From NCBI GenBank assembly GCA_964521915.1, contig CAZFTP010000001.1, positions 67,611-131,610 on the forward strand: a stretch of DNA of 64,000 bases. Direction: 5' to 3'. Position 1 is the stretch's first letter; each line of letters starts with the position of its first letter. The notes under the pieces are model-generated. The model was not told where the DNA came from. It saw nothing but the letters and a program-made list of their open reading frames with translations, and ran no database searches. This stretch comes from an uncultured Candidatus Marinamargulisbacteria bacterium. GTDB lineage: Bacteria; Margulisbacteria; Marinamargulisbacteria; CAZFTP01. Both the position numbers and the translations under genes were made by a program. Shown one piece after another: positions 3,251-41,998 of this stretch.

Positions 3251-3369
3251 CAACCCAAAACTAAAATAGAAATTCATTATTAGCATTAATTTTTGCTTAA
3301 ATAAGATCATTTTCTGATAAAAAAAATTTTCCTAAAAGAAAATAGCGCCGCTTAAACCCCCGGCATTTT

Positions 3370-3750
3370 TCACATTTCAATCGTACAAGTGGCATCAATA
3401 CCACCACGGGTGTTATAGATAGAAGTTACTTTAAGATAGTGTGGATTGAGAATTTTTTTAATGTCTTGAAAGATTCTATCTGTTACACCTTCTTGATAAA
3501 TCCCAACGTTTCTAAAAGAAACAAAATAATATTTCAAAGATTTTAACTCTACGCATAGTTTATCTGGAATATATTCAATTTTTACATGTGCAATATCCGG
3601 TAACCCAGAAAAAGGACATACCGCAGAAAATTCTTTGGTCTCGTTAAGAATATGTTGTCTTTCTCCTTCATATGGAAAGGTTTCTAAAAAATCAGTTCTG
3701 ATTTTATCTTCAGAATCAAATGTAAATTTTTTACCTTCAGCGAATATCAT
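3370..3750 (-). CDS. queF: NADPH-dependent 7-cyano-7-deazaguanine (preQ0) reductase
   Basis: 126 aa; CPFSGLPD catalytic Cys motif and ELKSLKYYF motif typical of type-I QueF. Confidence 0.85.
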
Positions 3751-3887
3751 TGTTGCTCCTTTTTATGTATACCCGTGGGGCGAAGCCCCACGGGTATACG
3801 AGAGAAATTGTTTTGCCCTGCCGGGCGGGCTTTAAGGCTTCGCCTTAAAAATCCTTTTTTTCTAAGGGGCTGCGCCTCTTAAACCCC
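3751..3887. repeat. GC-rich mosaic intergenic repeat cluster (modules A and B) between queF and the amidotransferase gene
   Basis: Perfect 33-nt hairpin at 3767-3799 (gtatacccgtggggc-gaa-gccccacgggtatac) plus ttctaaggggctgcgcctcttaaacccc unit; related copies at at least 8 other loci. Confidence 0.85.
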
Positions 3888-4457
3888 TTAAATATAATAG
3901 GCAAGAAAATTTTTAAGAATTTTCTTGCCTGGTTCAGTTAAAATAGATTCCGGGTGAAACTGAATTCCTTCAATCGGAAATTTTTTATGCCTAACGCCCA
4001 TAATAATTTTGTCTTTGGTCCAAGCAGAAATTTCTAAATCATCAGCTAAATTGTTATTATCTATAACCAAAGAATGGTATCTGGTAGCAATAAAAGGGTC
4101 TTCTATATCTTTAAAAATCGTTTTATTATCATGAAAAATTTCTGATGTTTTCCCATGCATTAAACTTGGTGCATAAGTAATTTTTGAACCAAAAACTTGA
4201 CCAATGGCTTGATGCCCCAAACAAACACCCAAAATCGGAATTTTAGGTCCTAATTTTTCTACAACTTCTTGAGATATTCCTGCATGTTCTGGTCTACCTG
4301 GCCCTGGTGAAATTACTAAATATTTTGGTTTTAATTTTTCGATTTCTTCAACGCTTAAAACGTCATTACGAATTACCTTAATATCTTGCCCAAGCTCACC
4401 AAAGTATTGGACTAGGTTATAAGTAAATGAATCATAATTATCAATAATTAATAGCAT
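3888..4457 (-). CDS. glutamine amidotransferase component II of anthranilate/aminodeoxychorismate synthase (TrpG/PabA type)
   Basis: MLLIIDNYDSFTYNL N-terminus, GVCLGHQ catalytic Cys, HPES motif; start moved to the internal ATG at 4457, which is preceded by AAGGAAA. Confidence 0.85.
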   Translation of the reverse strand: MLLIIDNYDSFTYNLVQYFGELGQDIKVIRNDVLSVEEIEKLKPKYLVISPGPGRPEHAGISQEVVEKLGPKIPILGVCLGHQAIGQVFGSKITYAPSLMHGKTSEIFHDNKTIFKDIEDPFIATRYHSLVIDNNNLADDLEISAWTKDKIIMGVRHKKFPIEGIQFHPESILTEPGKKILKNFLAYYI

Positions 4458-4493
4458 TAGTATTTCCTTGTATCTCCATTGGGCTACGCCCAA

Positions 4494-4719
4494 TGGAGAT
4501 ACGAAAAAGATATTTTTCTAAGGGACTCCGTCCCTTAAACCCTGTGGGGCTTCGCCCCGAGAACTAACAAGGTTTTTCTAAGGGGGCAAGCCCCTTCAAC
4601 CCCCAAAAATCATGTTAATCATTTAATCATGCGAATCCTGGTTCAGACAGTTCTCCGTCCCTTAAACCCTAGGTTTTATTTATGTATACCCGGGTGGCTC
4701 CGCCACCCGGGTATACGAA
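4494..4719. repeat. GC-rich mosaic repeat cluster (modules B, C, A) inserted between the component I and II synthase genes
   Basis: Units gggactccgtccc, ggggcaagcccc and gggcttcgcccc; ATCAT array at 4606-4650; perfect hairpin at 4684-4716 (gtatacccgggtggc-tcc-gccacccgggtatac). Confidence 0.85.
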
Positions 4720-6123
4720 TTACAAAATCGCTTGCAACAACGCGTAAGCTTTGTGGCAAGTTTCTTGATATTCCTTTTCAGGGTCAGAATCTGTTACAAT
4801 TCCAGCGCCAGCTTGAACATAAAGCTTACCAGCTTTTGCTAGAATAGTCCTAATAATAATACAAAAATTTAGATTATCTTGAAAATCAAAATAACCCATG
4901 GCACCGGCATATGGTCCGCGTTCACAAGGTTCCAGTTCTTCAATAATTTCCATAGCCCTAATTTTAGGCGCACCACTTACTGTGCCAGCTGGAAAAGTTG
5001 CCTTAAAAAGATCAAAAGCATCAAATTCGAGTTTTAATTTGCCAGTAACTTTAGTAACCATATGAATTACCCGAGAATATTTTTCAATATCAAACATATT
5101 TTCGGTTTTTACTTCATCAGCTACTCGGTTTAAATCGTTTCTGGCTAAATCTACCAGCATAATGTGTTCTGCTCTTTCTTTCTCATCTTGCAATAAATCG
5201 GCTATTACTTCCGGCTCTTTTAAAAAGTCATCCGGTCTTTGACGCGTACCTGCTATTGGTCTTAATTCTGCTATTCGATTATCGGATCTTACCAAAATTT
5301 CCGGCGAAGTACCAATAATCTGAAATTCAGGAGTATTATAGTAAAACATGTATGGTGAAGGGTTAATAAAACGTAATTTCCGGTAAATATCAAACGGGTT
5401 TTCTTTGGATTCAAAACTAAATTTCTGAGATAAAACTAGCTGAAAAATATCACCCTCAAAAATATAGTTTTTAGCTTTTTCAACTGCTTTTTTAAAATCT
5501 TCTTTTTTAAAATTACTTTGAATTTTTTCAAAAGGAATATGCTTTTGAATATTAGTTAAGAGTTTATTCTCACCCTGAAGTGGTTTTAAAATTCTTTTTT
5601 CAATTTCCGCTATTTTTTGTTTTGCTTTTTGTTCATCCTCTTTTTCAGCTAAAACTAAAATTATTACTTTTCTTTTTACATGGTCAAAAATTACCAGTGA
5701 ACCTGGAAAAAGAAAATGCATTAAAGGAAAATCAGTTTTTTCTTTATCTCGTTTATTGATTTTTTCAATATGATGAATTATCTCCCAACTAAAAAAACCG
5801 ATTGCACCACCAAAAAAATCCGGTAATAAAGGATCTTTTTTTACATCAAATTGGTGGTTTAGATTTCTAAGAATACTAATAGGGTTCTCTTTGGATTTAG
5901 ATGTTTTGTTTTCTAAAGTTATGGTTGTTTCATTATAATCATTTGTAACTTGGCAAAACGGATCAAAACCAATGAAGGAAAATCTCGCTAAATTTTCACC
6001 ACCAGTTACACTTTCTAATAAAAAGCTATTAGGTACATTAAGTTTAAGATAAAGCGAAACCGGAGTTTCCAAATCATCTAAGATTTCTTTATAAAAGGGA
6101 AAAAGTAATTTTTTTTCTGTCAT
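4720..6123 (-). CDS. anthranilate / para-aminobenzoate synthase component I (TrpE/PabB family)
   Basis: 467 aa chorismate-binding enzyme; C-terminal GTVSGAPK...PCERGPYAGAMGY...GAGIV motifs; no other trp genes nearby, so PabB is possible. Confidence 0.8.
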   Translation of the reverse strand: MTEKKLLFPFYKEILDDLETPVSLYLKLNVPNSFLLESVTGGENLARFSFIGFDPFCQVTNDYNETTITLENKTSKSKENPISILRNLNHQFDVKKDPLLPDFFGGAIGFFSWEIIHHIEKINKRDKEKTDFPLMHFLFPGSLVIFDHVKRKVIILVLAEKEDEQKAKQKIAEIEKRILKPLQGENKLLTNIQKHIPFEKIQSNFKKEDFKKAVEKAKNYIFEGDIFQLVLSQKFSFESKENPFDIYRKLRFINPSPYMFYYNTPEFQIIGTSPEILVRSDNRIAELRPIAGTRQRPDDFLKEPEVIADLLQDEKERAEHIMLVDLARNDLNRVADEVKTENMFDIEKYSRVIHMVTKVTGKLKLEFDAFDLFKATFPAGTVSGAPKIRAMEIIEELEPCERGPYAGAMGYFDFQDNLNFCIIIRTILAKAGKLYVQAGAGIVTDSDPEKEYQETCHKAYALLQAIL

Positions 6124-8445
6124 TTACTTCACTTCTTTAATTTCGTTAAATTTAGCTTTAAAAGCAACTACAATTTCAGGGTCAAATAATTTCGAATTTT
6201 CTATTTGTTTAAGGGCTTCTTCTGGTGTAAATCGACAGGTTTGGTGATAATATTTGTCGTTTGCTTTAGTAAGATAATAGCCAAAATTAGTTAAGGTATC
6301 GTAATGATCCGCCAAACCGATAATTTTGGCTTCTAAAGGAATTCGTTCATCACTTATACCTTCGGGGTAACCGGAACCATCAAAACGTTCGTGATGTAAT
6401 TTAGCGGCATTAATGTATTTATGTAAAATAGGGAATTGCTCTAATAATTTTGCCCCTTTTTCGGCATGAGATTTTAAAAGTATGTAATCTTCAAAAGTTA
6501 TTTCATTGGGTTTAAATAAAGCATTTGAATCAATCAATAATTTTCCGACATCATGAAGAATCGCACCATATTTTACCAAGTTAATTTCATCTTGGCTTAA
6601 ATTTAAACCTTTAGCTATAATTTCCGCAATTTTACTTACCCTTAAATTATGCATATACAAGGATTCATTTTTTTCTTTTAATTTATAAGCAAAGGCTTTA
6701 ATAGTGTTTATTTCTGAATATTTTGAGAGATTGGCTTGCTTAACTCCTTCTTGAACTTTTTGATAAGTTAGTACTCGGTTTCTTCCTAATTTTTTAGCAT
6801 TATAAAGAGCTTTATCTACCATGTATAAAAGTAAATCTTCCTCATTGGTGGTTTCTAAAAACATTTGGGCTTTGGCTGAATAGGCCATATCATCCGGAAA
6901 AGAGGAAATACCAAAACTAGCAGTAACTTTTAAGGGAGTAATTTTGTAGTTATTGTTTTCGAATTCCTCATTAATTCTATTTTGTAATAACTTTTTCATA
7001 TCATTAACAAAATCAGATTTTTTTATAGTCGGTTCATTAACTGGGAAAATTAATAATTCAATTCTGTTATTAACAATTTTTTCTAAAAAAATAGTTTCTA
7101 TTTCTTTTTGGGTATTTTTAATTTTAACAGAATAAAACTCTAATTCTTCAATTTTCATTCTGATTTTTTCCGCAACAGTAAAAGCTTCCATACTATCTGC
7201 ACCAACCAAAATACCGATTATTTCTTCACCACCGTATCTAGCGGCAATATCGGTTTTCCTGATAGTGTCCTTGAAAATTGATGCGACATGTTTTAAAACC
7301 ACGTCTCCTACCGGATGTCCAAAATTATCATTAATCTTTTTAAAGAAATCGATATCTAACATCACTAAAGAAATTGGGTAGGTATGGAGTTTTGATTTTT
7401 CTATTTCATCAACTATACTTTTTTGAAAAAATCCACGGTTGAATAATTTAGTTAGCCCATCTTCTAAAGCAAGAATTTCAACTGAACTATATAATTCTGC
7501 ATTTTCTATGGCAATAGAAATAAGGGAAGCCATCTCAATAATTATTCTTCTTTCTCTTTCATCGTAAGGTGTATCATCTTTTTTATCGGTAACATTAATT
7601 ACCCCTATTACTTGGTCTTTGGCTAATAGCGGAACGCACATAAAAGAATTAGAGCGGTAATTGTTTCTGTTAGTAAATTCAGCTTTTAATTTATTTAGGT
7701 TATCTATATCAGGAACAAAAAAAGGAATGCCACTTTGAGCCACTTTACCAGCTATTCCTTCACCTATTTTTTGTCTTTTACCAATAATTTTTCTTTTGGG
7801 TTTAGCCGCTTTTATTACCAATTCTTCTGTATTTTGATCTAAAAGCATTACGGAAATAGTTTTAGAATTTAACATCTGGGAAATTATGTTAATAATATAT
7901 TGTAAAGTTTTTTCAATATTCAATGTTGAAGTGATGATTTTAGAAGCAGTGTATAGTTTTTTGTATTCATCAAGAACAAATTTTAAATCAGTAATATTTT
8001 TTTCTAATTTTGAAGCTTTATTATTTTTTTTAGAAGAAACAAGATTAATTTTTAATGACATATTTTTGAGAATGGTATTATTTTCAACCATTTGCATGAG
8101 GGATTGAATGTTTATTTCAACCAGTTTGATAGAATCAGAATAATGAAATACTAATTTTGTTTCGTTAAGAATTGTTTGAGGCACATCATCACGATAATTT
8201 AATAATAGTGCTATTTCCGGTTTAGCTTTTTTAGTTTCCAAAAGGTAATTTTGAAGATAAATAAGAAATTCACCGTTATTTTTGAAAGGATTTAATATAA
8301 TAATATCCGGTGGGTTTTTTCCAAGTTTTTTTCTAAAACCAGATAAAGAACTTTTAATTTCCAAGGAAAAATCTAATAACGGAGATAAAACATTGAGTTT
8401 ATCTAGGAAATCTTTTCTTTTATCATTTATTAAAATTCTAATCAT
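6124..8445 (-). CDS. c-di-GMP signalling protein: degenerate receiver-like N-terminus, GAF-like region, GGDEF domain (GGEEI variant) and HD-GYP domain
   Basis: RYGGEEIIGIL (GGDEF-type), HDVGK and HHERFDGSGYPEG (HD-GYP); the N-terminal PDIIILNPF resembles a receiver with Asn at the phospho-acceptor position. Confidence 0.75.
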   Translation of the reverse strand: MIRILINDKRKDFLDKLNVLSPLLDFSLEIKSSLSGFRKKLGKNPPDIIILNPFKNNGEFLIYLQNYLLETKKAKPEIALLLNYRDDVPQTILNETKLVFHYSDSIKLVEINIQSLMQMVENNTILKNMSLKINLVSSKKNNKASKLEKNITDLKFVLDEYKKLYTASKIITSTLNIEKTLQYIINIISQMLNSKTISVMLLDQNTEELVIKAAKPKRKIIGKRQKIGEGIAGKVAQSGIPFFVPDIDNLNKLKAEFTNRNNYRSNSFMCVPLLAKDQVIGVINVTDKKDDTPYDERERRIIIEMASLISIAIENAELYSSVEILALEDGLTKLFNRGFFQKSIVDEIEKSKLHTYPISLVMLDIDFFKKINDNFGHPVGDVVLKHVASIFKDTIRKTDIAARYGGEEIIGILVGADSMEAFTVAEKIRMKIEELEFYSVKIKNTQKEIETIFLEKIVNNRIELLIFPVNEPTIKKSDFVNDMKKLLQNRINEEFENNNYKITPLKVTASFGISSFPDDMAYSAKAQMFLETTNEEDLLLYMVDKALYNAKKLGRNRVLTYQKVQEGVKQANLSKYSEINTIKAFAYKLKEKNESLYMHNLRVSKIAEIIAKGLNLSQDEINLVKYGAILHDVGKLLIDSNALFKPNEITFEDYILLKSHAEKGAKLLEQFPILHKYINAAKLHHERFDGSGYPEGISDERIPLEAKIIGLADHYDTLTNFGYYLTKANDKYYHQTCRFTPEEALKQIENSKLFDPEIVVAFKAKFNEIKEVK

Positions 8446-8451
8446 AATTAT

Positions 8452-8928
8452 TTAATTTAAAATATTAATTTTATCTTCGGGTTGAGATAAAACTCGAAAT
8501 TCAACTTTAGCTTCATTAAAAAGATCTTGATACATTTTATCCGGATATATGTTATAAGTAACTACCCTAATTATTCCGCTATTTACCATGAGTTTTGCAC
8601 AGATCAAACAAGGTGAATGAGTACAATATAAAGTTGCCCCTTTGATATTGATACCATGCAATGCGGCTTGAGCAATCGCATTTTGTTCTGCATGTACAGC
8701 ACGGCAGATTTCGTGCCTAGTTCCCGAGGCAATTTTGAGTTCGTCTCGCATACAACCTTTGGTGAGGCAATCTGTAACGCCTTTTACCGCACCATTGTAA
8801 CCAGTAGTAAGAATTTGTTTATCTTTAACAACCACTGCACCAACGTGATGTCTTAAACAAGTACTTCTTTCGGAAACAAGCATAGCAATTTTAAGAAAAT
8901 ATTCATCCCAGGAAGGTCGTTTTATCAT
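8452..8928 (-). CDS. deoxycytidylate (dCMP) deaminase, ComEB-like
   Basis: HAEQNAI and [11 protein letters not shown] zinc-binding cytidine-deaminase motifs; 158 aa. Confidence 0.8.
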
Positions 8929-9130
8929 ACTTAATCATTATAACAGAGTTTTAAGGGGTTTTTAAGTGGCTTTAGCCCCTATTTATATATACCCATGAGG
9001 CTTCGCCTTTTGAGTTTTTCATGTATACCAGAGTGGCTTCGCCACCCGGGATTCTTAAAGGGGGCAAGCCCCCTTAAACTCCATGAGTTTACCCTAGTGC
9101 CTTTTGCCTTGAGTTTCCAGTGTCTTTTAC
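8929..9130. repeat. GC-rich mosaic repeat cluster (modules A-degenerate, B, D)
   Basis: Units gggggcaagccccc and ctagtgccttttgcct; degenerate gtatacc...gccacccggg hairpin. Confidence 0.75.
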
Positions 9131-9226
9131 CTATTTTTACAAAAATAAAATAAGTTTTTTTATATTTACAAAAATAAAAAAACTAAGTATATTAGCTTTT
9201 AATAGTAAAAAATAAGAGGTGTGATA

Positions 9227-9733
9227 ATGGGAAATGGTGTATCAAAAACAAGTGCCGGACAGAGAAAGACAACAAAATCTTCATTAGCCGGAAGTTCAGA
9301 AGACAAAAAAGCGGAAAGAATTTTAAGGCTTATAAAAGCAAATGAGAATTGTGAAGGATCAACTTTCCTTGCTTCTTTACCTCAAATGGGAATGACTCCT
9401 GTTGAAATAGCTAGATTACAGGTTGCGACCCTAGCTTTAACAAGTGGTAGTATAAGCAGAGGTAAAGCAAAAACTGGTTTAGGAGCTGAAACGTTAGAAA
9501 GGATTTCCCAAGGGCATCCTTCAGGCAGAGCTACTCCACCTAAACCCAGACCTACTTTTGCACACAGTCATTCGTATGATGATTCACCCCTTCAATTACA
9601 TCCTGGTTATTCTTCTAGTTCCGAAATGGATTCTCCAAGAAAAAAATCCAGATCAACAGATGATATAGCTATACCCCCGGATAAAAAAAGAAAAACAAAA
9701 TTAGAAGAAAGAAGAGGGTCAGATCAGGTTTAA
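9227..9733 (+). CDS. hypothetical eukaryotic-like protein: N-terminal MGNGVSK (N-myristoylation consensus), Ser/Pro-rich, C-terminal KKRK basic patch
   Basis: ATG at 9227 lies 5 nt downstream of AAGAGGTG; local GC is clearly higher than surroundings; no recognisable bacterial domain. Confidence 0.55.
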   Translation: MGNGVSKTSAGQRKTTKSSLAGSSEDKKAERILRLIKANENCEGSTFLASLPQMGMTPVEIARLQVATLALTSGSISRGKAKTGLGAETLERISQGHPSGRATPPKPRPTFAHSHSYDDSPLQLHPGYSSSSEMDSPRKKSRSTDDIAIPPDKKRKTKLEERRGSDQV

Positions 9734-9774
9734 TCGATATTTACCAAATTCTAACTTTGAGCTAAAATAAGCTC

Positions 9775-11175
9775 ATGGCCAAAAACACACTTTATAACAA
9801 AGTCTGGGATCTTCATAAAATTGCTACTTTACCAACAGGACAAGATCAGATTTTTATTGGTTTGCATTATATGCACGAAGTTACAAGCCCAGCCGCTTTT
9901 TCTTTTTTAAGAGAACGAAAAGAAAAAGTGTTATTACCTCACCGCAATTTTGCTACTTACGATCACGTAATCCCTACGGATGATCAATCCCGTCCATTTA
10001 AAGACCAAGAAGCAGAAATTATGGCAAGTACCATTGAAAAAAATACAAAAGAATTTGGCATTACTTTTTTTGGTTTAAATTCCGGTAAAGAAGGTGTTGT
10101 CCATATTATTGGACCGGAGCATGGAATCACTAAACCAGGTATGATTATTGCTTGTGGAGATAGTCACACCAGTACGCATGGCGCGTTTGGCTCTTTGGCA
10201 TTTGGCATCGGAACTACAGAAGTAAGCATGGTTTTAGAAACTCAAACCTTAGCTTTGAATCCGTTAAAAGTACGTAAAATTCAATTTAACGGTACTATGC
10301 AAAAAGGGGTTTCTGCTAAAGATTTAATTTTAAAAGTAATTCAAGTTTTAGGTGTAAATGGTGGTTTAGGTTATGCTTATGAATTTAGCGGTGATGTAAT
10401 CAGTAAAATGAACATGGATGAAAGAATGACTATCTGCAATATGAGTATTGAGGGTGGAGCAAGAATTGGGTATATTAACCCAGATCAAATTACTTTTGAT
10501 TATATTAAAGATCGTGAATATGCACCAAAAGGGGCTGATTTCGATAAAGCTGTAAAATTTTGGCATTCAATAGCAAGTGATAAAGACGCAGTTTATGATG
10601 ATGTAGTAGAATTTGATGTGTCAAAAATTGAACCAATGATAACTTGGGGTATTAACCCAGGTATGGTCATGGGAATTAGCGAAAAAATCCCGATGCTAAA
10701 AGATTTGTCAGAAGCAGAACAAAAACATATTAAGCATGCTTTAGATTATATGAAATTTAAAGAAGGGCAATCACTTTTAGGTTTACCAGTAGATGTAGTA
10801 TTTATTGGGTCTTGTACTAACGGCCGAATGACAGACTTTAGGATTGCTGCAGAAATCATGAAAGGTAAAAAAGTTGCTGATAATGTTAAATGTTTGGTTG
10901 TACCTGGTTCTGCTGCCATTAAAAAGCAAGCAGAAGCAGAAGGCTTAGACAAAATATTTATTGATGCAGGTGCTGAGTGGCGTTATGCGGGTTGTTCGAT
11001 GTGTTTGGCGATGAACCCAGATAAGTTAATCGGAGATCAAATTAGCGTTTCAACTAGTAATCGTAACTTTATTGGCAGGCAAGGTAGTTCTACAGGTAGA
11101 ACTATTTTGGCTAGCCCGGCAGTTGCTGCCATCACCGCTATTAACGGTAAAATTAAGGGACCTTCGGTCCCTTAG
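9775..11175 (+). CDS. leuC: 3-isopropylmalate dehydratase large subunit
   Basis: 466 aa aconitase-family protein; [13 protein letters not shown] and GSCTNGR motifs. The last codons and stop (KGPSVP*) are encoded by a module-B-like repeat unit gggaccttcggtccc. Confidence 0.9.
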
Positions 11176-11403
11176 ACCCTAAGGATGAATATAGTATTCT
11201 TAGGGGACTTCGTCCCCTAAAACCCCTTGGGGAATAATGGTTTTTAAGGGACTCCGTCCCTTAAACCCTGGCGGGGCAAGCCCCTGCACCCCATGGATTT
11301 TTAAGGCGTAGCCTTAATATACCCAAAAGGGGTTTAAGGGGGCTTGCCCCCTTAGAAAACAATATTTTTCTCGTACTCTTTTTTGCGAAGCAAAAAAGAG
11401 TAC
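11155..11403. repeat. GC-rich mosaic repeat cluster inserted between leuC and leuD, ending in an AT-rich perfect hairpin
   Basis: Units gggaccttcggtccc, ggggacttcgtcccc, gggactccgtccc, ggggcaagcccc, gggggcttgccccc; hairpin gtactcttttttgc-gaa-gcaaaaaagagtac at 11373-11403. Confidence 0.8.
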
Positions 11404-11419
11404 ATAAAAAGGTGTAAAT

Positions 11420-12019
11420 ATGATTATAAAAAAAATAATTGGCAAAGCCGTTCCCATCGATGGCGATGATATAGATACAGATCAAATATTACCTGCCAAG
11501 TTTATGAAGGAAATCACCTTCGATAACATGGGTAAGTATCTTTTTTACGATTATCGTTATGATAAAGAAGGTAAAACCAAAGGGCATATTCTTGATAAAC
11601 CACAACATAAAGAAGCTGTTTTATTTTTTGCCAAAAAGAATTTTGGATGTGGTTCATCCCGCGAGCACGCACCGCAAGCTTTGAAACGCTACGGAGTAAA
11701 AGCCATTGTGGCAGAATCTTTTGCCGAAATTTTTGCCGGAAATTGTAAAGCTTTAGGTATTCCTTTAGTTACAGTTCCAAAAGAAGTTCTGGATATTATA
11801 ACCTTAATCAGCCTAGAAAAACCAGATACGGAGTTTGAAATTGATTTAGAAACTCAAACTATTTCGTTTCACGAAAAGTCATTCGTAATTGAAATAAAAA
11901 AATCTCACCGAGAAGACTTTTTAGCTGGAACTTGGGATGTCCGTTCACTTCTTAAAGCTAATTTAGACAAAATTATGGCAAAAGATAAAGAACTCAAAGC
12001 ACTAGGTGAATTATATTAA
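11420..12019 (+). CDS. leuD: 3-isopropylmalate dehydratase small subunit
   Basis: 199 aa; GDDIDTDQILPA and FGCGSSREHAPQAL motifs. Confidence 0.9.
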   Translation: MIIKKIIGKAVPIDGDDIDTDQILPAKFMKEITFDNMGKYLFYDYRYDKEGKTKGHILDKPQHKEAVLFFAKKNFGCGSSREHAPQALKRYGVKAIVAESFAEIFAGNCKALGIPLVTVPKEVLDIITLISLEKPDTEFEIDLETQTISFHEKSFVIEIKKSHREDFLAGTWDVRSLLKANLDKIMAKDKELKALGELY

Positions 12020-12058
12020 ATAATAAAAACTAAAATTTTGATTTAACGAATTTTGTCA

Positions 12059-13720
12059 CTAAGTTACCTTTTGAACATCTTCTGCCACCGAACTAATCGA
12101 ACTTAAATTAAACTTCTCTTTAATAATCTTATAAACATTTGGCGATATAAAAGCAGGCAAAGTTGGTCCTAAAATAATATTTTTAAATCCTAGGCTTAAA
12201 AGCATTAATAATACCAATACGGCTTTTTGTTCATACCAAGCAATATCAAAGGAAATTGGTAAATCATTAAGATCACTTAAACCAAAGACTTCCTTTAATT
12301 TTAAGGCAATTACAGCAAGAGAATAACTATCGTTACATTGACCGGCATCAAGTACCCTAGGTATACCGTTAATTGTACCTAAATCCAAAAAATTATACCG
12401 ATATTTAGCACAACCGGCAGTCAAAATTATTGTATCCGACGGTAATTTTTCGGCAAATTCGGTATAGTAAGTTCTTTCTTTAAATCGACCATCGCAACCA
12501 GCCATCACTATAAAACGTTTAATTGCGCCGGATTTTATAGCTTCTATAATCTTATCAGCATTAGCTAAAACGGTATCGTGAGCAAAACCAATTGTTAATT
12601 TCTTGCCTTCTTTAACCTCTAAATCGCCTAACTCTTGGGCTTTTTGTATAAGCCCGGAAAAATCTTTCGGTTGATTATTCTTCCTATCTTCAATATGTTT
12701 TACTCCCGGCCAAGCAACAAGTCCAGTAGTAAAAATGCGATCTTCATAAGTATCCAAAGGTTTTTGAATACAATTGGTGGTCATTAAAATTGCACCTTTA
12801 AATTCCGCAAACTCTTTTTGTTGATTGTACCAAGAAGACCCGAAATTCCCGATCAAATTTCCATACTGCTTGAAAAACGGGTAAGCATTTGCCGGCAACA
12901 TTTCACCATGAGTATAAATATTCACGTCTGTACCTTTAGTTTGTTCTAAAAGCTCAGCTAAATCTCTTAAATCATGCCCGCTAATTAATATTCCCGGTCC
13001 TTTTATGGTGCCGGTAAAAACTTCGGTAATTTCTGGTTTGCCATAGGTACTAGTGTTTGCAGTATCTAAAAGCGCCATAGTTTCTGCTCCGAAATTACCG
13101 GTTTCAATAATTAAACCCAAATACTCTTCGGCAGTTAAATTACTCAAACCTATTTTAGCTAGACAATTTTCGATAAAATCAAAAATCTTTTCATTTGTAT
13201 AACCTAAAACATAAGCATGATCTAAATAAGCCGAAATTCCTTTTAAACCATAGATAAGTAAATATCTTAAAGACCTAATATCTTCATTTTCAATACTTAA
13301 AATACCAACTTCTTTTGCTTTAGCTAAATAAGTTTGTTTTGAACTAATACTTGGTTGCCAATAGGCACTTTCTGGAACAAAGTTAAAATCAAAGGGCTGT
13401 TTGTTTTGTTCTTGGAATTTAACCAAAAACTTTTCTTTTAAACTGTCTCTTAAATCAAAAGCTTTATTAATAAGAACTATTAAACGATCATCATCAAAAT
13501 TAACATTAGTGATAGTTGAAAATAAGGCTTGAATAATAAAAACCGAAATAGTTTCATTTTTTAACCCAAGTTTTTTACTTTCAACCTGCCAAAAGCTTAA
13601 ACCGAACAATAAATAAATTAATAAATCCATTAAATTACTGGAATCGTCTTTTTTGCCGCAGACACCTTGGATGCTACAGCCTTGATTTTTCACGGTTTCT
13701 TGACATTGGTAGCAAAACAT
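12059..13720 (-). CDS. hcp: hydroxylamine reductase / hybrid-cluster protein
   Basis: MFCYQCQET N-terminal Cys motif of Hcp; start moved to the ATG at 13720, which is preceded by AAGGAG. Confidence 0.9.
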   Translation of the reverse strand: MFCYQCQETVKNQGCSIQGVCGKKDDSSNLMDLLIYLLFGLSFWQVESKKLGLKNETISVFIIQALFSTITNVNFDDDRLIVLINKAFDLRDSLKEKFLVKFQEQNKQPFDFNFVPESAYWQPSISSKQTYLAKAKEVGILSIENEDIRSLRYLLIYGLKGISAYLDHAYVLGYTNEKIFDFIENCLAKIGLSNLTAEEYLGLIIETGNFGAETMALLDTANTSTYGKPEITEVFTGTIKGPGILISGHDLRDLAELLEQTKGTDVNIYTHGEMLPANAYPFFKQYGNLIGNFGSSWYNQQKEFAEFKGAILMTTNCIQKPLDTYEDRIFTTGLVAWPGVKHIEDRKNNQPKDFSGLIQKAQELGDLEVKEGKKLTIGFAHDTVLANADKIIEAIKSGAIKRFIVMAGCDGRFKERTYYTEFAEKLPSDTIILTAGCAKYRYNFLDLGTINGIPRVLDAGQCNDSYSLAVIALKLKEVFGLSDLNDLPISFDIAWYEQKAVLVLLMLLSLGFKNIILGPTLPAFISPNVYKIIKEKFNLSSISSVAEDVQKVT

Positions 13721-13773
13721 TGTTGTTCTCCTTTTTTCTTTTTTGAAAAGAAACAAAATTTTTTATTTTATAT

Positions 13774-13803
13774 CTACTTTCTTTTTGTGAAAAAAGAAAG
13801 TAG
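13774..13803. promoter_or_regulatory. perfect 13-bp inverted repeat (ctactttcttttt-gtga-aaaaagaaagtag) about 55-85 nt upstream of hcp; candidate operator
   Basis: Read directly from the sequence; a second shorter palindrome tttcttttttgaaaagaaa lies at 13733-13751. Confidence 0.5.
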
Positions 13804-13816
13804 CAAAGAAAATCAC

Positions 13817-13915
13817 CCCAAAACACAGGGACCCGCTATTTGTGTGCTCAGCTCCACCCATCCCCCCGTGGGACCCCTTACGCTGTGCACAAAAACAGCG
13901 ACCTATGTTTTGGGG
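13817..13915. other. GC-rich structured element (about 99 nt) flanked by inverted ccccaaaaca/tgttttgggg arms, in the rrf2-hcp intergenic region
   Basis: Local GC is far above background; internal complementary segments (tttgtgtgctcagc / gctgtgcacaaa). Confidence 0.45.
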
Positions 13916-14053
13916 TTTGAACTCTTTTTTTACTCCCTCTCCTTAATAAGGAGAGGGGTGAGGTTATATTCCCCCTCGTTTTTTGCTTAAAAATCTAAAA
14001 ATTAACCAAAATATACCTGCCAGCAAAAAGAGAGGGGGTCAGGGGGTGAGTTA

Positions 14054-14449
14054 TCACAAATTTTTTATCTTAGTTCCCTCCAACTTAGCAAAAAATTCCT
14101 CCTGAAATTCTTTTAAAATCTTATGCATGGGGCAACTGCCTTGTAAAAAACAATTTCCTTCAGCATTTAAGCATTCATTAAAACGGAATTTAGGATCAAT
14201 AATATTAATTATATCTAAAACACTCGAATTTTTATTAATAAATCTTACTCCTCCTGTTTTACCTCTTTGCGATTCAATAATTCCTTTTTTCGCTAATTGC
14301 TGAAAAATTTTGGCTAAAAAAATTTCTGACACCTTAATATTTTTCGCAATTTGACTAATAGTTATAACATCATCCTGCGGTTGATTAGCTAAAAATATTA
14401 TTGCTCTTAAAGCATAATCTAACCTTCTACTAATTAATATCTCAATCAC
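14054..14449 (-). CDS. Rrf2-family (NsrR/IscR-like) Fe-S transcriptional regulator
   Basis: N-terminal wHTH (DYALRAIIFLA), C-terminal C-x6-C-x5-C cysteine triad; lies immediately upstream of hcp. Confidence 0.8.
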   Translation of the reverse strand: MIEILISRRLDYALRAIIFLANQPQDDVITISQIAKNIKVSEIFLAKIFQQLAKKGIIESQRGKTGGVRFINKNSSVLDIINIIDPKFRFNECLNAEGNCFLQGSCPMHKILKEFQEEFFAKLEGTKIKNL

Positions 14450-14690
14450 CTCCTAAATAAAACCATTTTAGTCTTATTTAAGAGTATGACCAAAAAATTA
14501 AGCTTTGTCAACAATATTATTAATATATTTACTTTGGTACTAGTGCGCTGGAAATATTTCTCTAATCTTATATAATAAAAAATACAAAAAAAAATTTAAA
14601 TATCAATAATTTAATAATCAGCGCTCCAAAAATAGCAAAATAATGTTTCAAAAAATTACTTTATTGGAAAAATATACTAGAGGATAAAAA

Positions 14691-19641: not shown

Positions 19642-21027
19642 TTATATTAAAAACAAAATTGTGCCTAAAATTAAAGAAAAATAAATTATTTGTCCAATTA
19701 CATCTAAGGTTGTAGCAATAAACGGCGCACTGGCAACTGCCGGATCAATTTTTATTGCTTTAAAAATAATAGGCAAAGCAGAACCAATAATAGCCGCAGT
19801 AATAATATCAATTATCATAGCCACAAATAGAATAAATGAAAATAATAACGGATGTCCAGTAATTAAATTTACTGTCACAACAATACTTGAAATTATTACC
19901 CCTATACTTAAGCCAATAAATAATTCTCTTAATATATAATTTAAATATTTTCTTCTTACTAAACCTGTTGCTAAACCTCTAACCACAATAGTAGCAGATT
20001 GATTTGCCACATTTCCCCCTAACCCGAGTAACATAGGTAAAAAACTCAAAGAAATTGCCAAAGAAAAAAAATAATCCTTAAAATGATGCGAATAAAAATT
20101 AATTAAAAAAGAAGCTAGAAAACCACCGGTAATAGGTAATAAAATCCAAATAATTCTAGATTTTACTGCAAAAGAAATTTTACCGGATACTAATTTTTCC
20201 TCTTCAATATTACCAGTACCAGTTAATTTATAAATATCTTCGGTAGCTTCTTCTACCATAACATCCATAATGTCATCTATGGTAATAATACCAATAATAT
20301 TTTCATGCTCATTTATTACCGGCAAAACAGACATGTCATATTTGCGAAATAATTTAGCTACTTCTTCCTGGTCTAAATGCTTATTAATAATAACCGGTAC
20401 TTCATTTTTTATTTCTGAAATTTTTGTTTTTATCGGTTTTATCAATAACTCTTTTAAAGTAATAAAACCAGAAATTTTATTATCTTTATCATAAGTAAAT
20501 AAATAAAAACTAGCTTCATTTTCTGGCAATTCCTGTTTTTTTATCCAAGCTATAGTTTCTTGAACTGTAAAAGCTTCAGGAATAGCCAAATAATCACTGG
20601 TCATTATGGCTTGTGCAGAATCTTCTTTGGAAGCTAATAATTTACCTATTTCTTCAGCAGATTCTTCAGGTAAAGAAGATAAAATTTCATGTGCTTTTTC
20701 TTCATCTTCTTCAAAAAGTTCTTCTAGCAAATCTACGGCATTATCAACTTCCATTTCTTCAATAAATTTAGTAGCAAGATCAGTTTTAAAATCAATAATT
20801 AATTGAATTTGATTACCTAAACCCATTTGTTCCAAAATTTCTACGGCAATTTCTGGTTTAGCTTTTAAAAAGAATTGATATCTTTTTTCAAATGGAATTT
20901 CTTCTAAAACCTCAGCAATATCTGCTTCATGATATTTTTGGAAAAAAATATGATACTGACGCGGAGTGCCCCGTTCAATTAAACGTTCTAGTAGTTTTTG
21001 AGATGGTTTGTTGTCTGATTCTTCCAT
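19642..21027 (-). CDS. mgtE: magnesium transporter MgtE
   Basis: MgtE N-domain, CBS pair, C-terminal TM region with GGNVANQSATIVVRGLATG. Confidence 0.85.
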   Translation of the reverse strand: MEESDNKPSQKLLERLIERGTPRQYHIFFQKYHEADIAEVLEEIPFEKRYQFFLKAKPEIAVEILEQMGLGNQIQLIIDFKTDLATKFIEEMEVDNAVDLLEELFEEDEEKAHEILSSLPEESAEEIGKLLASKEDSAQAIMTSDYLAIPEAFTVQETIAWIKKQELPENEASFYLFTYDKDNKISGFITLKELLIKPIKTKISEIKNEVPVIINKHLDQEEVAKLFRKYDMSVLPVINEHENIIGIITIDDIMDVMVEEATEDIYKLTGTGNIEEEKLVSGKISFAVKSRIIWILLPITGGFLASFLINFYSHHFKDYFFSLAISLSFLPMLLGLGGNVANQSATIVVRGLATGLVRRKYLNYILRELFIGLSIGVIISSIVVTVNLITGHPLLFSFILFVAMIIDIITAAIIGSALPIIFKAIKIDPAVASAPFIATTLDVIGQIIYFSLILGTILFLI

Positions 21028-21126
21028 AATTTATGTCTATCTATAAGGGTCTCCGTCCCTTAAACCCTGATTTTTTTTCTCCTGTCTCCTGACTCCGGTC
21101 TTCTGTCTCCCGAGCCCCTCTAGTAC
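21028..21126. repeat. GC-rich repeat cluster (module B unit, CT-rich tctcctg repeats, module D)
   Basis: agggtctccgtcccttaaaccct; ctctagtacct overlaps the thiC stop codon. Confidence 0.7.
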
Positions 21127-22596
21127 CTATTCTCCAAATACTTTCATGGCACAAAAATTCGGACCACACATAGAACAATAATTTTTACCCTTATTATTTT
21201 CTAACAAATAACCAAATTTAAGATAACTATCCGGATCTAAACTTAATTTGAATTGATCTTCCCATCTAAATTCTTTTCTTGCTATTGATAAAGCCAAATC
21301 ACGCGCTATAGCTAAAGGTAATTGTTTACTTAAATCTGCGGAATGCGCCGCAATTCGATGAAAAATTATACCTTCTTTTACATCAGCCAAATCAGGTAAA
21401 CCTAAATGCTCCTTAGGTGTAACATAACAAAGCATAGAAGTACCTAAGTGAGCTATTAAAGCACCTCCTATAGCAGAAGACAAATGATCATACCCCATGG
21501 CACTATCTGTTACCAAAGGACCTAAGGTATAAAAAGGTGCCGACTTTGTATATTCAATTTCTTTTTGCATATTTTCAGGGATCTTATCTAAAGTTACATG
21601 CCCTGGTCCTTCAATCATGGTTTGCACATTATATTTATAAGCTATTTCTTTTAATTGTCCTAAAACTTTTAATTCGCCAAATTGCGCTTCATCATTAGCA
21701 TCAAAAATAGAACCTGGTCGTAAACCGTCACCCAAACTAAAACAAACATCATATTTAGCTAAAATCTGACAAATTTCTTCAAAATGCTCAAATAAAAAGT
21801 TTTCCTTATTAAATATCCGGCACCACTTGGCTAAAATTGCTCCTCCGCGCGATACTATACCTAACCTTCTTTTTTCTGCCAAAGGAATAAATTCCTTTAA
21901 TACACCAGCATGAATAGTAAAATAATCAACTCCTTGTTCAGCTTGTTCCAAAATTACTTCTTTAAAAACTGACCAGGTTAAATCTTTTATCTCCCCACCA
22001 ACTTTTTGTAAAGCTTGATAAATCGGTACAGTACCAATAGGAACAGGTGAATTTCGTAAAATTCTGTCTCGAGTTTCGGTTATATCATTTCCGGTAGAAA
22101 GATCCATAACTGTATCTGCTCCATACCAAATAGAACACACCATTTTTCCTAATTCTTTTTCAATAGAAGAACAACCGGTTGAATTACCTATATTGGAATT
22201 AATTTTTGTTTTAAATTTAGACCCAATAATCATTGGTTCTAATTCCACATGATTTACGTTAGCTGGAATAATAGCTCTACCTTCTGCAACCTCTTTTAAA
22301 ACTAGTTCTATGGGAAATCCTTCCCTTAAAGCCACAAATTCCATTTCAGGAGTGATATTACCTTCTTTTGCTGATTTCAATTGAAAATTACTTTTATTCC
22401 TTAATGGTTTAAGCCCTGTATTAAAATCAGTCTGAAAATTTTCTATAGAATAAGGACCGGAAGTATCGTATAAATTAATTTTTTCTTTATTAGAAAGAAT
22501 TACTTGTTGAAAAGGAATTTTTTGTTCTGGGAATTTCTCCCCTTTTTTAAAAATTTTCTCTGCACCATAGTATTTTCGGGATTCATTAAATTTCAT
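21127..22596 (-). CDS. thiC: phosphomethylpyrimidine synthase
   Basis: 489 aa radical-SAM-like ThiC; C-terminal [11 protein letters not shown] motif. Confidence 0.9.
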
Positions 22597-22710
22597 TTTT
22601 ATTCCTCGTTCAATTCATTATACCTAGATCAATAGTTTTGGAACAGAGGAATTTTTTTATGTGCTTAAATTTTTTTGCTTTGCAAAAAAATTTAAGCACT
22701 AATCGATCTA

Positions 22711-23619: not shown

Positions 23620-23662
23620 ATGAGTCTGTCGCAAAATGAGAAATAGCCATTTTGTAGCAGGT
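23620..23662. repeat. MITE-like inverted-repeat element, copy 1 (gagtctgtcgcaaaatg...ccattttgtagcagg)
   Basis: Shares the terminal-repeat core with copies at 24688, 35941, 36040, 44897 and 55060. Confidence 0.7.
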
Positions 23663-24687: not shown

Positions 24688-24757
24688 TAGTCTGTCGCAA
24701 AATGAGACATTTTTTCAAAATAGTTTTGAGAAATAGCCATTTTGTAACAGACTCATC
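24688..24757. repeat. MITE-like inverted-repeat element, copy 2 (full length, about 70 bp)
   Basis: agtctgtcgcaaaatgagacattttttcaaaatagttttgagaaatagccattttgtaacagactc. Confidence 0.75.
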
Positions 24758-24769
24758 AAATTATAATTT

Positions 24770-25854: not shown

Positions 25855-26120
25855 GATTGTTTATAATGTATACCCAGGGTGCGGAGCACCCTGGGTATAC
25901 GAGAAAAGGTAGTTTTCTAAGGGGCTTCGCCCCTTATACCCCATGGGGCTTTCGCCCCGAGAAACAAGGGAAATTATTTTCGAAGGGCTTTTTTTCATGA
26001 TTCTATCTTAACCCTTAATCTTACTCCTTAACCTTATTAGCAGACCCCCTTAAACCCCCTATAAAATCATGCTAATCATTTAATCATACGAATCATGGTT
26101 CAAGACATTCCCTATTGCCT
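25855..26120. repeat. GC-rich mosaic repeat cluster (modules A, B, B', C); the most complete composite locus
   Basis: Perfect hairpin at 25868-25900 (gtatacccagggtgc-gga-gcaccctgggtatac); ggggcttcgcccc and ggggctttcgcccc units; ATCAT array atcatgctaatcatttaatcatacgaatcatggttcaagacattcc. Confidence 0.85.
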
Positions 26121-27470
26121 TCATTTCAATTTCCAACGAACGCCTTCTGGCGTATCTTCTAAAATAATTCCTTTAGCAAGTAAAATATTTCTGATTTCAT
26201 CAGCTCTTTGAAAATCACGTTCTTTTTTAGCTAGTGTACGTTCTTCAATTAAGTTTTGATCTTCGATACTAATTTCCAAGGAATTATTATCTTCATTAAA
26301 CAATCCCAATATCTGCCCAAGCTTTTTTAATAACCAAACACCTTTATTATTAACATTTATATATTTATTAAGATCAAATAATACAGCAACAGCCAACGAC
26401 AAATTAAAATCATCATTCATAGCAGCAATAAAACGAGATTCGAACTCAGCTAAGTCAGGATTGATTTCTTCATCAATATCTTTATGAATTGCTAGGGTAT
26501 TTTCAAACCTTTGGTAAGCATGTTTAGCTTCCTCCAAAGCATCAAAAGAAAAATTGAGCGGAGAGCGATAATGTACCCGAATTAAAAAGAACCTCAATAC
26601 TTCTCCTGAATAAGATTCTAAAATTTGTTTGATAGTAAGAAAATTATTAAGCGATTTAGACATTTTTTCTTCGTTAATATTTACAAAACCGTTATGAAGC
26701 CAGTATTTTACAAAAGGTTTGCCGGTAAAACTTTCAGATTGGGCAATTTCATTTTCATGATGAGGGAAAAGTAAATCCTCACCACCGGCATGTATATCTA
26801 TCGTTTCCCCTAATTCTGCCAAAGACATAGCAGTGCATTCAATATGCCAGCCTGGTCTTCCTTCGCCCCATGGGCTAGTCCAGGATGGCTCACCAGGCTT
26901 AGCTTTTTTCCATAAAGCAAAATCAAGCGGGTTTTCTTTATCAGTATCTATATCTACTCTTGCCCCAGCTACTAGATCTTCCAAATTTTTTTTCGATAAT
27001 TTACCGTAATTACGAAAATTATTTACCCTAAAATACACATCCCCGTCTTTACCAATATACGCCATTTTTTTATTAATTAAACCGCTTATTATTTTTTGTA
27101 TTTCTTTAATATATTCTGTTGCCTTTGGATATTTATCCGCTCGTTTCACAAAAAGACGGTCCAAATCTTCAAAATAAGATTCAATATACTGATTAGTAAT
27201 TTGCTGGAAAGGCTTATTTAATGAATTAGCTTTATTAATTATTTTATCGTCAATATCAGTAAAATTTTGAATATATCTTACATAATAACCTAAATATTCC
27301 AAATAACGACGAATAGTATCAAAAACTACATACGCTCTGGCATGCCCTATATGACAGTTATCATAAACAGTAACGCCGCAAGTATAAAAAGTAACTCTTG
27401 GTTCATTTATTGGTACGAATAATTCTTTACTTTTAGTTAAAGAATTATAAAGATATAATTGTTTGTTCAT
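26121..27470 (-). CDS. cysS: cysteinyl-tRNA synthetase
   Basis: HIGHARAY and KMSKS class-I motifs. Confidence 0.9.
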   Translation of the reverse strand: MNKQLYLYNSLTKSKELFVPINEPRVTFYTCGVTVYDNCHIGHARAYVVFDTIRRYLEYLGYYVRYIQNFTDIDDKIINKANSLNKPFQQITNQYIESYFEDLDRLFVKRADKYPKATEYIKEIQKIISGLINKKMAYIGKDGDVYFRVNNFRNYGKLSKKNLEDLVAGARVDIDTDKENPLDFALWKKAKPGEPSWTSPWGEGRPGWHIECTAMSLAELGETIDIHAGGEDLLFPHHENEIAQSESFTGKPFVKYWLHNGFVNINEEKMSKSLNNFLTIKQILESYSGEVLRFFLIRVHYRSPLNFSFDALEEAKHAYQRFENTLAIHKDIDEEINPDLAEFESRFIAAMNDDFNLSLAVAVLFDLNKYINVNNKGVWLLKKLGQILGLFNEDNNSLEISIEDQNLIEERTLAKKERDFQRADEIRNILLAKGIILEDTPEGVRWKLK

Positions 27471-30379: not shown

Positions 30380-30707
30380 TGTATTTATTTTTCCCTAATA
30401 ATCCTATTTTTTATTTTAAAAAAGAAACAAAATTTTATATTTATGTATCCCCAGGGTGCTTCGCACCCTGGGGATACATAAAAAACTCATGAGATGAGGG
30501 TAAAAATTCACCCTCTTTAACCTCGTAGAGCTATCATATCTGAACTCCGATTTATAGAATTATAAGATTTTCTTGATTAAAGGGTATATCTTAGGCTTAC
30601 TTATTTCTTTAATCATGCTAATCATTTAATCATGTAAATCATGGTTCAAGACATTTCCCTGAGCCCCACTAGTGCCTAGTGCCTTTTGCCTAGTACCTGT
30701 TCCCCAT
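30380..30707. repeat. mosaic repeat cluster (module E aaaagaaacaaaatttt, module A hairpin 30445-30477, ATCAT array, module D ctagtgcctagtgccttttgcctagtacct)
   Basis: Perfect hairpin gtatccccagggtgc-ttc-gcaccctggggatac; module D abuts the stop codon of the leuA/cimA-family gene. Confidence 0.85.
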
Positions 30708-36039: not shown

Positions 36040-36068
36040 GGAAAATAGCCATTTTGCTACAGACTCAA
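36040..36068. repeat. MITE-like half copy (aaatagccattttgctacagactc) upstream of ssb
   Basis: Right-arm terminal repeat only. Confidence 0.6.
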
Positions 36069-36119
36069 AGGAGAAAATAAAAAAAATAACCTAACCTTAC
36101 TTTAAAAAGAGGTGTTAAA

Positions 36120-41791: not shown

Positions 41792-41998
41792 ATGGATATA
41801 AGAATTAATTTTCTAATGGGCTTAGCCCCTTAAACCCTTTGGGGCTAACGCCCCAACTCCAAGGGGAGATATCTTTTCTTAAGGGGCTTCGCCCCTTAAA
41901 CCCCGAGGAAGATATTTTCTCTTTTCCCAACGTTAGCACTTTAGCACGTTGAACGATTCTTGAGCCCCCCTAGTGCCTAATGCCTTCTGCCTAGTGCC
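41792..41998. repeat. mosaic repeat cluster (modules B x3, D) between ymdB and rny
   Basis: Units gggcttagccc, ggggctaacgcccc, ggggcttcgcccc; ctagtgcctaatgccttctgcctagtgcctta abuts the rny stop codon. Confidence 0.8.

Follow-up and report, generated by a model that had tools for sequence, protein, structure and literature searches.

The 64-kb window analysed here, a stretch of approximately 30% G+C from an uncultured Candidatus Marinamargulisbacteria bacterium (contig CAZFTP010000001.1), carries a leuC gene for the large subunit of 3-isopropylmalate dehydratase that is followed, on the same strand, by leuD. The two genes are separated by 244 nt, and this gap, together with the final 21 nt of leuC, consists of short GC-rich hairpin units plus one AT-rich hairpin; a gap built from repeat units had been described in an earlier note on this DNA (11155-11419) and is present as described. 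Clusters of the same kind lie between other genes of the window, which were named from NCBIfam and Pfam profile matches on the open reading frames (ORFs; Table 1). The best named relatives of LeuC, MurE and TrpE belong to Candidatus Margulisiibacteriota, with top identities of 75%, 59% and 63%, respectively; no LeuC with more than 63% identity is present among the species representatives of the genome collection searched.

The leftmost unit of the leuC-leuD cluster is a perfect 9-bp hairpin (TAAGGGACC-TTC-GGTCCCTTA) of the type denoted module B below. It encodes the residues KGPSVP and contributes two bases to the TAG stop, the last base of which is at 11175. Thus, as previously claimed, the last six codons and the stop of leuC (11155-11175) are supplied by a repeat unit. 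The next unit is another perfect B hairpin (TTAGGGGAC-TTC-GTCCCCTAA) with an AAACCCC tail, followed by a two-hairpin unit in which a B unit (11243-11265) and the motif AAACCC precede the hairpin GGCGGGGCAAGCCCCTGC (11271-11287), a weak B-variant hairpin (TTAAGGC-GTA-GCCTTAA) and an inverted B unit (GGGGTTTAAGGGGGC-TT-GCCCCCTTAG) with a perfect stem at 11335-11354. The B part of the two-hairpin unit contains a 19-mer identical to 4519-4537 in the trpE-trpG spacer, and the B plus GGCGGGGCAAGCCCCTGC dimer recurs in three related contigs (L109, L141 and L182). The inverted B unit and the adjacent AT-rich, perfect 14-bp hairpin form a B-spacer-A composite such as those found upstream of other genes; the flanks of this hairpin (TTTTTCTC ... 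ATAAAAAGG) match an inverted module A, and it ends 16 nt, rather than the 17 nt given before, ahead of the leuD ATG. The spacer RNA is predicted to fold with an energy of -127 kcal/mol (z = -8.7). An assembly artefact at leuC is ruled out by the independent contig L001 (Logan assembly, run SRR4343444), which is identical to the window over 8395-11270, across the junction and three B units.

Repeat finding, TRF and pattern scans define four modules. Module A is a hairpin of 15-20 bp (TTTTTAT-GTATACCC..GC-loop-GC..GGGTATAC-GAGAGAA) with energies of -27 to -37 kcal/mol. Module B is a GC hairpin of 8-10 bp with an AACCC tail, often accompanied by a second hairpin (TGGC-GGGGC-loop-GCCCC-TGCACCCC); its units are 19-27 nt long and adjoin period-7 arrays. 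Module C is an AATCAT array with a period of 8-9 that terminates in GGTTCAAGACA, and module D is a heptamer array of the CCTAGTG type; the heptamer and ATCAT arrays were detected by TRF, and the repeat families D1-D6 tie the clusters together. Perfect hairpins with a stem of 7 bp or more, including 4 or more G/C, number 22 in the window, compared with 1.0 expected from simulated sequence, and the B pattern TAAGGGNC-NNN-GNCCCTTA is matched nine times, compared with 0.04 expected. Among the 12 copies of module A, 97% of the cells are paired and compensatory changes are found at 11 of the 15 pairs, values that were reached by none of 500 shuffles. At the gathering threshold, Rfam detects only a tRNA-Lys in the window and gives no match to a module in 15 related loci; at E<=1, there is no match to a cluster in 3300-14500. 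A string search of the literature did not find the B sequence, and a phmmer search with the peptide of 41808-41969 (- strand) against 1.84 billion representatives yielded only spurious RCC1-like and low-complexity matches.

Comparison with relatives indicates what these spacers looked like without the modules. In the three relatives nearest by LeuC (72-75% identity), 31, 12 and 10 nt separate leuC from leuD, and none of the modules A-D is present in their loci of 8-17 kb. The locus L213 (GCA_042569005.1, Margulisiibacteriota) shares with the window the gene order dCMP deaminase, GGDEF, trpE, trpG, queF; there, trpE and trpG overlap by 4 nt and the trpG-queF spacer is 0 nt, compared with gaps of 262 and 137 nt in the window. 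Similarly, murE and murF overlap by 4 nt in L210 and are 185 nt apart in the window. In approximately 30 cyanobacterial leuC loci, modules A, B, C and D are lacking except for isolated single pattern matches. The contig of the closest TrpE relative (63% identity) breaks 33 nt past trpE at ...TATTTTTTC; this sequence usually lies to the left of B units, so that a cluster may be present at the trpE junction of this relative too. Overall, these sequence comparisons support the conclusion that the insertions splitting the leuC-leuD, trpE-trpG, trpG-queF and murE-murF pairs are derived. The rny-ymdB pair is split by repeats as well.

Of the proteins encoded next to clusters, LeuC is the only one with a clearly rewritten tail. 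The motif G-x-h-x-D-[VIAPLT]-R, usually followed by 3-5 residues, is kept in 118 of 120 LeuC homologs and is missing from the window protein; DNA homology of leuC to the relatives ends after GGTAAAATT; and, in a tblastn search of LeuC against 80 genomes, all matches end at residue 448-463 of 466, mostly at 460. It is conceivable that the tail arose by a small deletion or frameshift in ancestral codons that resembled the B arm, not by insertion of a B unit, in which case the resemblance of KGPSVP* to the repeat would be partly ancestral. Indeed, the tail of one relative, L086 (GTA AGG GAT), shares eight of nine bases with the B arm TTAAGGGAC, and MAFFT aligns AAGGGAC of the window to this tail after an 8-nt gap. 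However, such microhomology is found in just one of the three relatives. In the window, the entire 21-nt hairpin is there, with its right arm GGTCCCTTA and the GACCC tail, making up a complete B unit like eight others; it runs directly into another 230 nt of modules, which none of the three relatives has. A deletion or frameshift origin of the tail is thus quite improbable. A search for a remnant of the ancestral LeuC tail downstream of the cluster produced just a weak resemblance in TTAGAAAAC that was judged unconvincing.

The case of MurE is ambiguous. The murE codons GTC TTG AAC TGT GAT TAA match the conserved end of module C, which is also present at cysS, cimA and trpE-trpG, and in the related contigs L182, L141 and L173. 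The overlap of the murE end with an ATCAT array noted earlier is real and covers five codons and the stop (VLNCD*), not seven. Given that MurE orthologs without the element end in ...FDDxExVRxVL, the V-L may be ancestral, with only NCD* being clearly new, so that rewriting would concern at most 3-5 residues. In addition, MurE (390-405 aa) and MurF (379 aa), encoded at 45862-48404, are short and lack most of the usual N-terminal domain; a length of approximately 390 aa is also typical of the retrieved Margulisbacteria-like MurE homologs. The alignment of ThiC with solved ThiC structures extends to residue 487 of 489, and its CX2CX4C motif is intact; the true thiC stop is the CTA at 21127-21129, not 21120-21122, and it abuts the heptamer array instead of lying inside module D, as had been supposed. 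TrpE, RNase Y, CysS and CimA reach the profile ends or match ortholog tails. Hence, the proposal that the elements rewrite C-termini, when checked by alignment with orthologs, stands for LeuC, is limited to NCD* in MurE, and fails for ThiC and the other four proteins, whose tails are ortholog-like.

Table 1. Genes, repeat clusters and modules of the window. Modules of the trpE-trpG cluster are given on the + strand.
Feature	Position	Strand	Remarks
queF	3370-3750	-	NCBIfam/Pfam
trpG-queF cluster	3751-3887		137 nt; A 3767-3799, small hairpins, B 3863-3881
trpG	3888-4457	-	true start is the ATG at 4457
trpE-trpG cluster	4458-4719		262 nt; -120.9 kcal/mol, z -8.6; A 4470-4502, B 4519-4537, hairpin, B2 4579-4597, C array 4608-4650, half B 4655-4673, A 4684-4716
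trpE	4720-6123	-	NCBIfam/Pfam
Divergent-spacer cluster	8929-9135		degenerate A, B, D; upstream of the dCMP-deaminase/GGDEF/trpE/trpG/queF block
leuC	9775-11175	+	NCBIfam NF004016, 691.7 bits, residues 2-461
B unit inside leuC	11154-11174	+	-13.9 kcal/mol
B unit	11200-11220	+	perfect hairpin
Two-hairpin unit	11243-11287	+	B and second hairpin
B-variant hairpin	11301-11317	+	weak
Inverted B unit	11329-11356	-	
AT-rich hairpin	11373-11403	-	-18.4 kcal/mol, z -7.4
leuD	11420-12019	+	Shine-Dalgarno AAGGTG at 11409-11414
mgtE	19642-21027	-	NCBIfam/Pfam
thiC-mgtE cluster	21028-21126		B 21044-21062; heptamer array 21078-21110 abutting thiC stop
thiC	21127-22596	-	NCBIfam/Pfam
cysS-hydrolase cluster	25861-26112		A, B, hairpin, half B, C array ending 16 nt from cysS stop
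cysS	26121-27470	-	NCBIfam/Pfam
lysA	29084-30379	-	NCBIfam/Pfam
cimA-lysA cluster	30438-30704		A (20-bp stem), C array, D array ending ~3 nt from cimA stop
cimA	30708-32288	-	NCBIfam/Pfam
ymdB-like phosphoesterase	40964-41791	-	NCBIfam/Pfam
rny-ymdB-like cluster	41762-41998		degenerate A by ymdB start, two B, hairpin, D array abutting rny stop
rny	41999-43534	-	NCBIfam/Pfam
murF	45862-47001	-	NCBIfam/Pfam
Degenerate C module, murE 3' end	47160-47206		GTCTTGAACTGTGATTAA encodes VLNCD*
murE	47187-48404	-	NCBIfam/Pfam

Modules are present at ten junctions, about one intergenic spacer in five, namely queF-trpG, trpG-trpE, the divergent spacer, leuC-leuD, thiC-mgtE, cysS-hydrolase, cimA-lysA, rny-ymdB, murE-murF and ssb-hyp155, the last with a single A-like hairpin only. 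This confirms the earlier claim of dispersed elements at gene 3' ends and inside operons, and the cimA and rny stops adjoin module D as had been noted. The cluster reported between the two synthase components, trpE and trpG, is likewise there; its length is not 226 nt but 262 nt because trpG starts at the ATG, the TTG at 4493 being located within a hairpin. Enrichment in co-directional spacers was considered and dropped: modules occur at 8 of 35 co-directional and 2 of 14 other junctions, which is no difference, and, with no operon preference, the placement looks like tolerated insertion anywhere between genes. The distance from the stop codon to the first module is -21 to +16 nt at all nine junctions, as expected of untargeted insertion into spacers of 0-30 nt. 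The part of the window from 48000 to 64000, with accDA and flagellar genes on the + strand, is free of A-D modules. The sign of the GC skew flips near 53 kb, at the same place as the gene-strand switch; a replication origin near 52.9 kb, considered on account of these two changes, was rejected given that no dnaA is found there and the flanking genes are rpsT and accD.

The modules follow a usual order, which in the mRNA sense is stop-D-C-(B/hairpin)n-A-start. Module A ends 16, 12 and 16 nt before the start codons of queF, trpG and leuD, just ahead of AGGAG, AAGGA and AGGTG, respectively, and likewise precedes two genes in the related contig L153; at the other end, B adjoins the trpG stop and an A hairpin lies 3 nt past the trpE stop. 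Orientation is nearly uniform: a single orientation on the + strand is shared by 15 of the 16 B tails and by almost every A, C or D module. The leuD-proximal pair (B 11329-11356, A 11373-11403), the flanks of which match the queF copy (ACATAAAAAGG[A/T]G), is inverted on the DNA, so that the usual polarity relative to leuD is kept; the three B units by leuC have the opposite polarity. The A, B, C and D modules also occur in six short related contigs (L109, L141, L153, L173, L182 and L183), where their polarity with respect to the genes is, by our reading, the same in all but one case.

Such a strand bias would also be produced if the units were palindromes derived from REP/REPIN or IS200/IS605 elements that are moved as single-stranded DNA at the replication fork by a Y1 (RAYT/TnpA) transposase encoded elsewhere, with no role at the RNA level. 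The small imperfect palindromes, the mosaic clusters and the position near gene ends all fit this scenario as well. However, the units lack a GTAG or CGTC tag, no Y1 transposase is encoded in the window, and the inverted B-A pair that keeps its polarity to leuD fits transcription polarity at least equally well. An origin of this kind therefore seems unlikely.

Of the functions suggested previously for the clusters, namely intra-operon terminators, attenuators or processing sites, that of terminators finds no support in either of the two focal spacers: a hairpin followed by a T-run, as in an intrinsic terminator, is found neither on the + strand of 11155-11419 nor on the - strand of 4458-4719, and neither spacer contains a promoter-like site on the transcribed strand. 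In this proposal, the clusters would be selected terminators or attenuators between leuC and leuD and between trpE and trpG that set different levels of the subunits. The very stable hairpins located exactly between the cistrons, the conservation of module order and polarity relative to the flanking genes, and the maintenance of the module A structure by compensatory changes are all compatible with such a role, and BIME-associated attenuation is known in E. coli. Nevertheless, apart from the missing T-runs, the flanks of module A in the mRNA sense are T-rich on the 5' side and A-rich (ATAAAAA) on the 3' side; LeuC and LeuD, like TrpE and TrpG, work only together within one enzyme, so that separate levels would bring no obvious benefit; and, without a promoter-like site in the clusters, full termination would silence leuD, trpG and queF. 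Selected termination or attenuation accordingly appears to have a low probability. Separately, the codons for GKKILKNFLA at the 3' end of trpG (3899-3930) make up a perfect 13-bp palindrome, after which the transcribed strand is T-rich; the site was scored as terminator-like by the scan and is native coding sequence, not a repeat module.

The explanation that we consider probable is that the clusters are inserted copies of a lineage-specific, non-coding mosaic repeat cassette that is co-transcribed with the flanking genes, does not terminate transcription and insulates the cistrons at the RNA level. A cassette of modules A-D would have entered the gaps between the genes of a compact genome, gaps that at first measured just 0-30 nt, and the clusters probably grew by repeated or nested insertion. 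With such short ancestral spacers, an insertion would abut the stop codon of one gene on one side and the ribosome-binding site of the next gene on the other. The left junction at leuC would lie approximately 21 nt inside the gene, such that the ancestral tail ..V-D-V-R-x-x-L* was lost and translation would now continue six codons into the B unit, up to the TAG. Module B contains stops in two of the three frames in either orientation, the open frame reading GFKGRSPL (antisense) or KGLRPLN (sense), and this open third frame would explain the in-frame read-through of modules inside genes of the relatives described below. Co-transcription, without termination, is suggested by the lack of promoter-like and terminator-like sites and by the presence of separate Shine-Dalgarno sequences of leuD, trpG and queF after the A hairpin. 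The stable stem-loops would act as RNA insulators, blocking 3'-exonucleases that attack the upstream cistron and shielding the 5' end of the downstream cistron, and the translational coupling of the relatives would be replaced by independent initiation. By analogy with E. coli REPs close to a stop codon, the A hairpin next to the trpE stop and the B unit abutting the trpG stop could, in addition, slow termination of the upstream genes.

Several points weigh against a tolerated, RNA-insulating insertion. None of the approximately 60 ORFs of the window, which covers 64 kb of a contig of at least 263 kb, encodes a transposase or RAYT, and neither terminal inverted repeats (TIRs) nor target-site duplications were found. 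No relative closer than 75% LeuC identity is available, hence there is no same-species pair of a filled and an empty site. The near-uniform orientation on one strand could reflect the replication strand, not the polarity of transcription, and the two are inseparable because nearly all other flanking genes are on the - strand. The conserved order and polarity of the modules could also mean that the cassette is a selected regulatory unit, not tolerated selfish DNA. Finally, every RNA-level function attributed to the clusters is deduced from the sequence.

The elements belong among the small palindromic mosaic repeats, an already known kind, and the sequence set itself is new. With the REP/BIME repeats of enterobacteria and pseudomonads they share imperfect palindromes just 20-40 nt in length that are combined with other short motifs into mosaics, location at gene 3' ends and between the cistrons of operons, and stable stem-loops, which in the present case are presumably transcribed as well. 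Genomes with REPs have a RAYT gene, usually flanked by REPs; none is encoded in the 64 kb of the window. The present elements differ in their tandem heptamer and ATCAT arrays, the near-fixed module order and polarity, and entry into coding sequence. As in the present clusters, REPs often follow a stop codon at a distance of only a few nucleotides, and ribosomes are stalled by E. coli REPs located no more than 15 nt from the stop (PMC12306157, citing Liang et al. 2015). Two large REP superfamilies are defined by a GTAG or CGTC tag (PMC3733652), whereas the first bases are (C)GTATAC in module A and TAAGGG in module B; the sequences are unrelated.

The cyanobacterial SDR/STRR repeats resemble the present modules in being tiny, hairpin-forming dispersed units, nested among other repeats including heptamer arrays and MITEs, with no coding capacity and unexplained mobility; the likeness is one of form and arrangement. 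The SDRs are reportedly some 21-27 nt long, and the STRR repeats are said to be heptameric (Elhai et al. 2008, Genome Res 18:1484, via PMC3116915). The host phylum is the sister group of Cyanobacteria. Unlike SDR/STRR, the modules form an ordered cassette that overlaps gene ends and, in related contigs, gene interiors. In this latter respect, they are similar to the RPEs of Rickettsia, palindromic repeats located inside protein-coding genes and translated in frame (PMC10969869), as seen in the LeuC tail of the window and in the interiors of Nnr-like and FtsX-type proteins in related contigs. However, RPEs are single units of approximately 100-150 bp and mostly intragenic, whereas the elements described here are mosaics of 20-50 nt modules that are mostly intergenic, and both the sequences and the hosts are unrelated. 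MITEs, such as Chunjie of Geobacter and Correia of Neisseria, are found between operon genes without destroying the operon and can alter RNA processing (PMC10969869). A MITE is a unit of 50-500 nt that has TIRs and is flanked by a target-site duplication. The clusters are likewise non-autonomous repeats of 100-300 nt between operon genes, but they have unlike ends, one formed by A and the other by D or C, no TIR or cognate insertion sequence was found, and no direct repeats are seen at the junctions in comparison with the empty sites in relatives.

Read-through of modules in frame is observed in two of the related contigs. In L109, an ORF encoding a 295-aa Nnr/YjeF_C-like protein (480-1367, - strand) reads through two B units (...GFKGRSPLENNLPGGKGDFVPL...), corresponding to approximately 33 aa. 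In L173, an ORF for a 472-aa FtsX-type ABC permease (116-1534, - strand) reads through approximately 230 nt of D and B modules, corresponding to approximately 80 aa, and the module-derived segment is located between the periplasmic domain and the second transmembrane segment (TM2). In alignments with PDB structures, the module segments of both proteins are extra or replaced stretches.

Module B is widespread beyond this lineage. The exact B hairpin with its tail (TAAGGGNC-NNN-GNCCCTTAAACCC) is present in at least 120 metagenome contigs of 30-71% G+C and, among the matches listed (L089-L208), is flanked by unrelated sequences in at least 72 different contexts; in 128 of 132 instances from the same matches, the two stem positions left free by the pattern are paired. 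Some metagenomic copies form tandem arrays with a period of approximately 27 nt (examples of B loci: L194, 640-870; L174; L150, 1-110; L135, 2769-2797). One B context is a TIR-bearing, MITE-like element of approximately 125 nt with inverted ends TAGACTTGTTGC...GCAACAAxTCTA and an internal B. A TnpB/IscB guide RNA was considered for this conserved context and rejected, as the flanking ORFs are housekeeping genes (carB, nuoL-like, pyrD) and the context is a MITE-like repeat. Two linked and bolder readings can be put forward with considerable reservation, as rather doubtful extensions. First, D-C-B-A would be a portable intercistronic cassette of fixed polarity that may bring along a stop-codon context, hairpins serving as RNA insulators and a ribosome-binding region adjacent to A, and that may be droppable between translationally coupled genes without killing them. 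Second, B (TAAGGGNC-loop-GNCCCTTA-AAACCC) would be a tiny hairpin module across many bacterial phyla, which may be SDR-like far beyond cyanobacteria and occasionally taken up into proteins.

The empty-site comparisons document remodelling of a compact genome by palindromic repeats in a little-studied candidate phylum: at least four pairs of genes for one enzyme or pathway would have lost their translational coupling through the repeats, and a C-terminal motif found in almost every LeuC has been replaced. In relatives, the repeats add tens of residues to the interior of proteins, as is known mainly from Rickettsia. The clusters are also of practical relevance for annotation and binning, as they break short-read assemblies (several related contigs end inside clusters), create false ORFs and mislead start calls, as illustrated by the trpG TTG. 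Should the proposed RNA-level insulation of cistrons by the cassette hold true, operon engineering would gain a compact part of natural origin. The occurrence of the B hairpin in so many metagenomic contexts is worth a separate study.

The window contains several other repeats and structured regions. An AT-rich module (..AAAATTTTGTTTCTTTTCTAAAAAGAAAAAGGA.., mRNA sense) with a small AT hairpin is located directly upstream of the hcp, lysA and murF starts (13726-13799, 30389-30443 and 46995-47077) and also in L153 (260-360) and L173 (1-60); it may be a source of a 5' untranslated region, ribosome-binding site or promoter. The hcp-rrf2 spacer (13780-14050) holds a different GC-rich, apparently structured stretch with long-range pairing (CCCCAAAACA...TGTTTTGGGG) and the hairpin CCCTCTCCTT-AAT-AAGGAGAGGG at 13935-13957, for which Rfam matches are at chance level only. 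The region upstream of thiC (22597-22710) contains no TPP riboswitch at the Rfam gathering threshold and includes an AT-rich, perfect 18-bp hairpin at 22661-22699. Another dispersed, intergenic palindrome of approximately 75 nt with the arms AGTCTGTCGCAAAATG...CATTTTGCnACAGACT, unrelated to modules A-D, is found at 23623-23657, 24689-24766, 36042-36078, 44910-44946 and 55062-55126.

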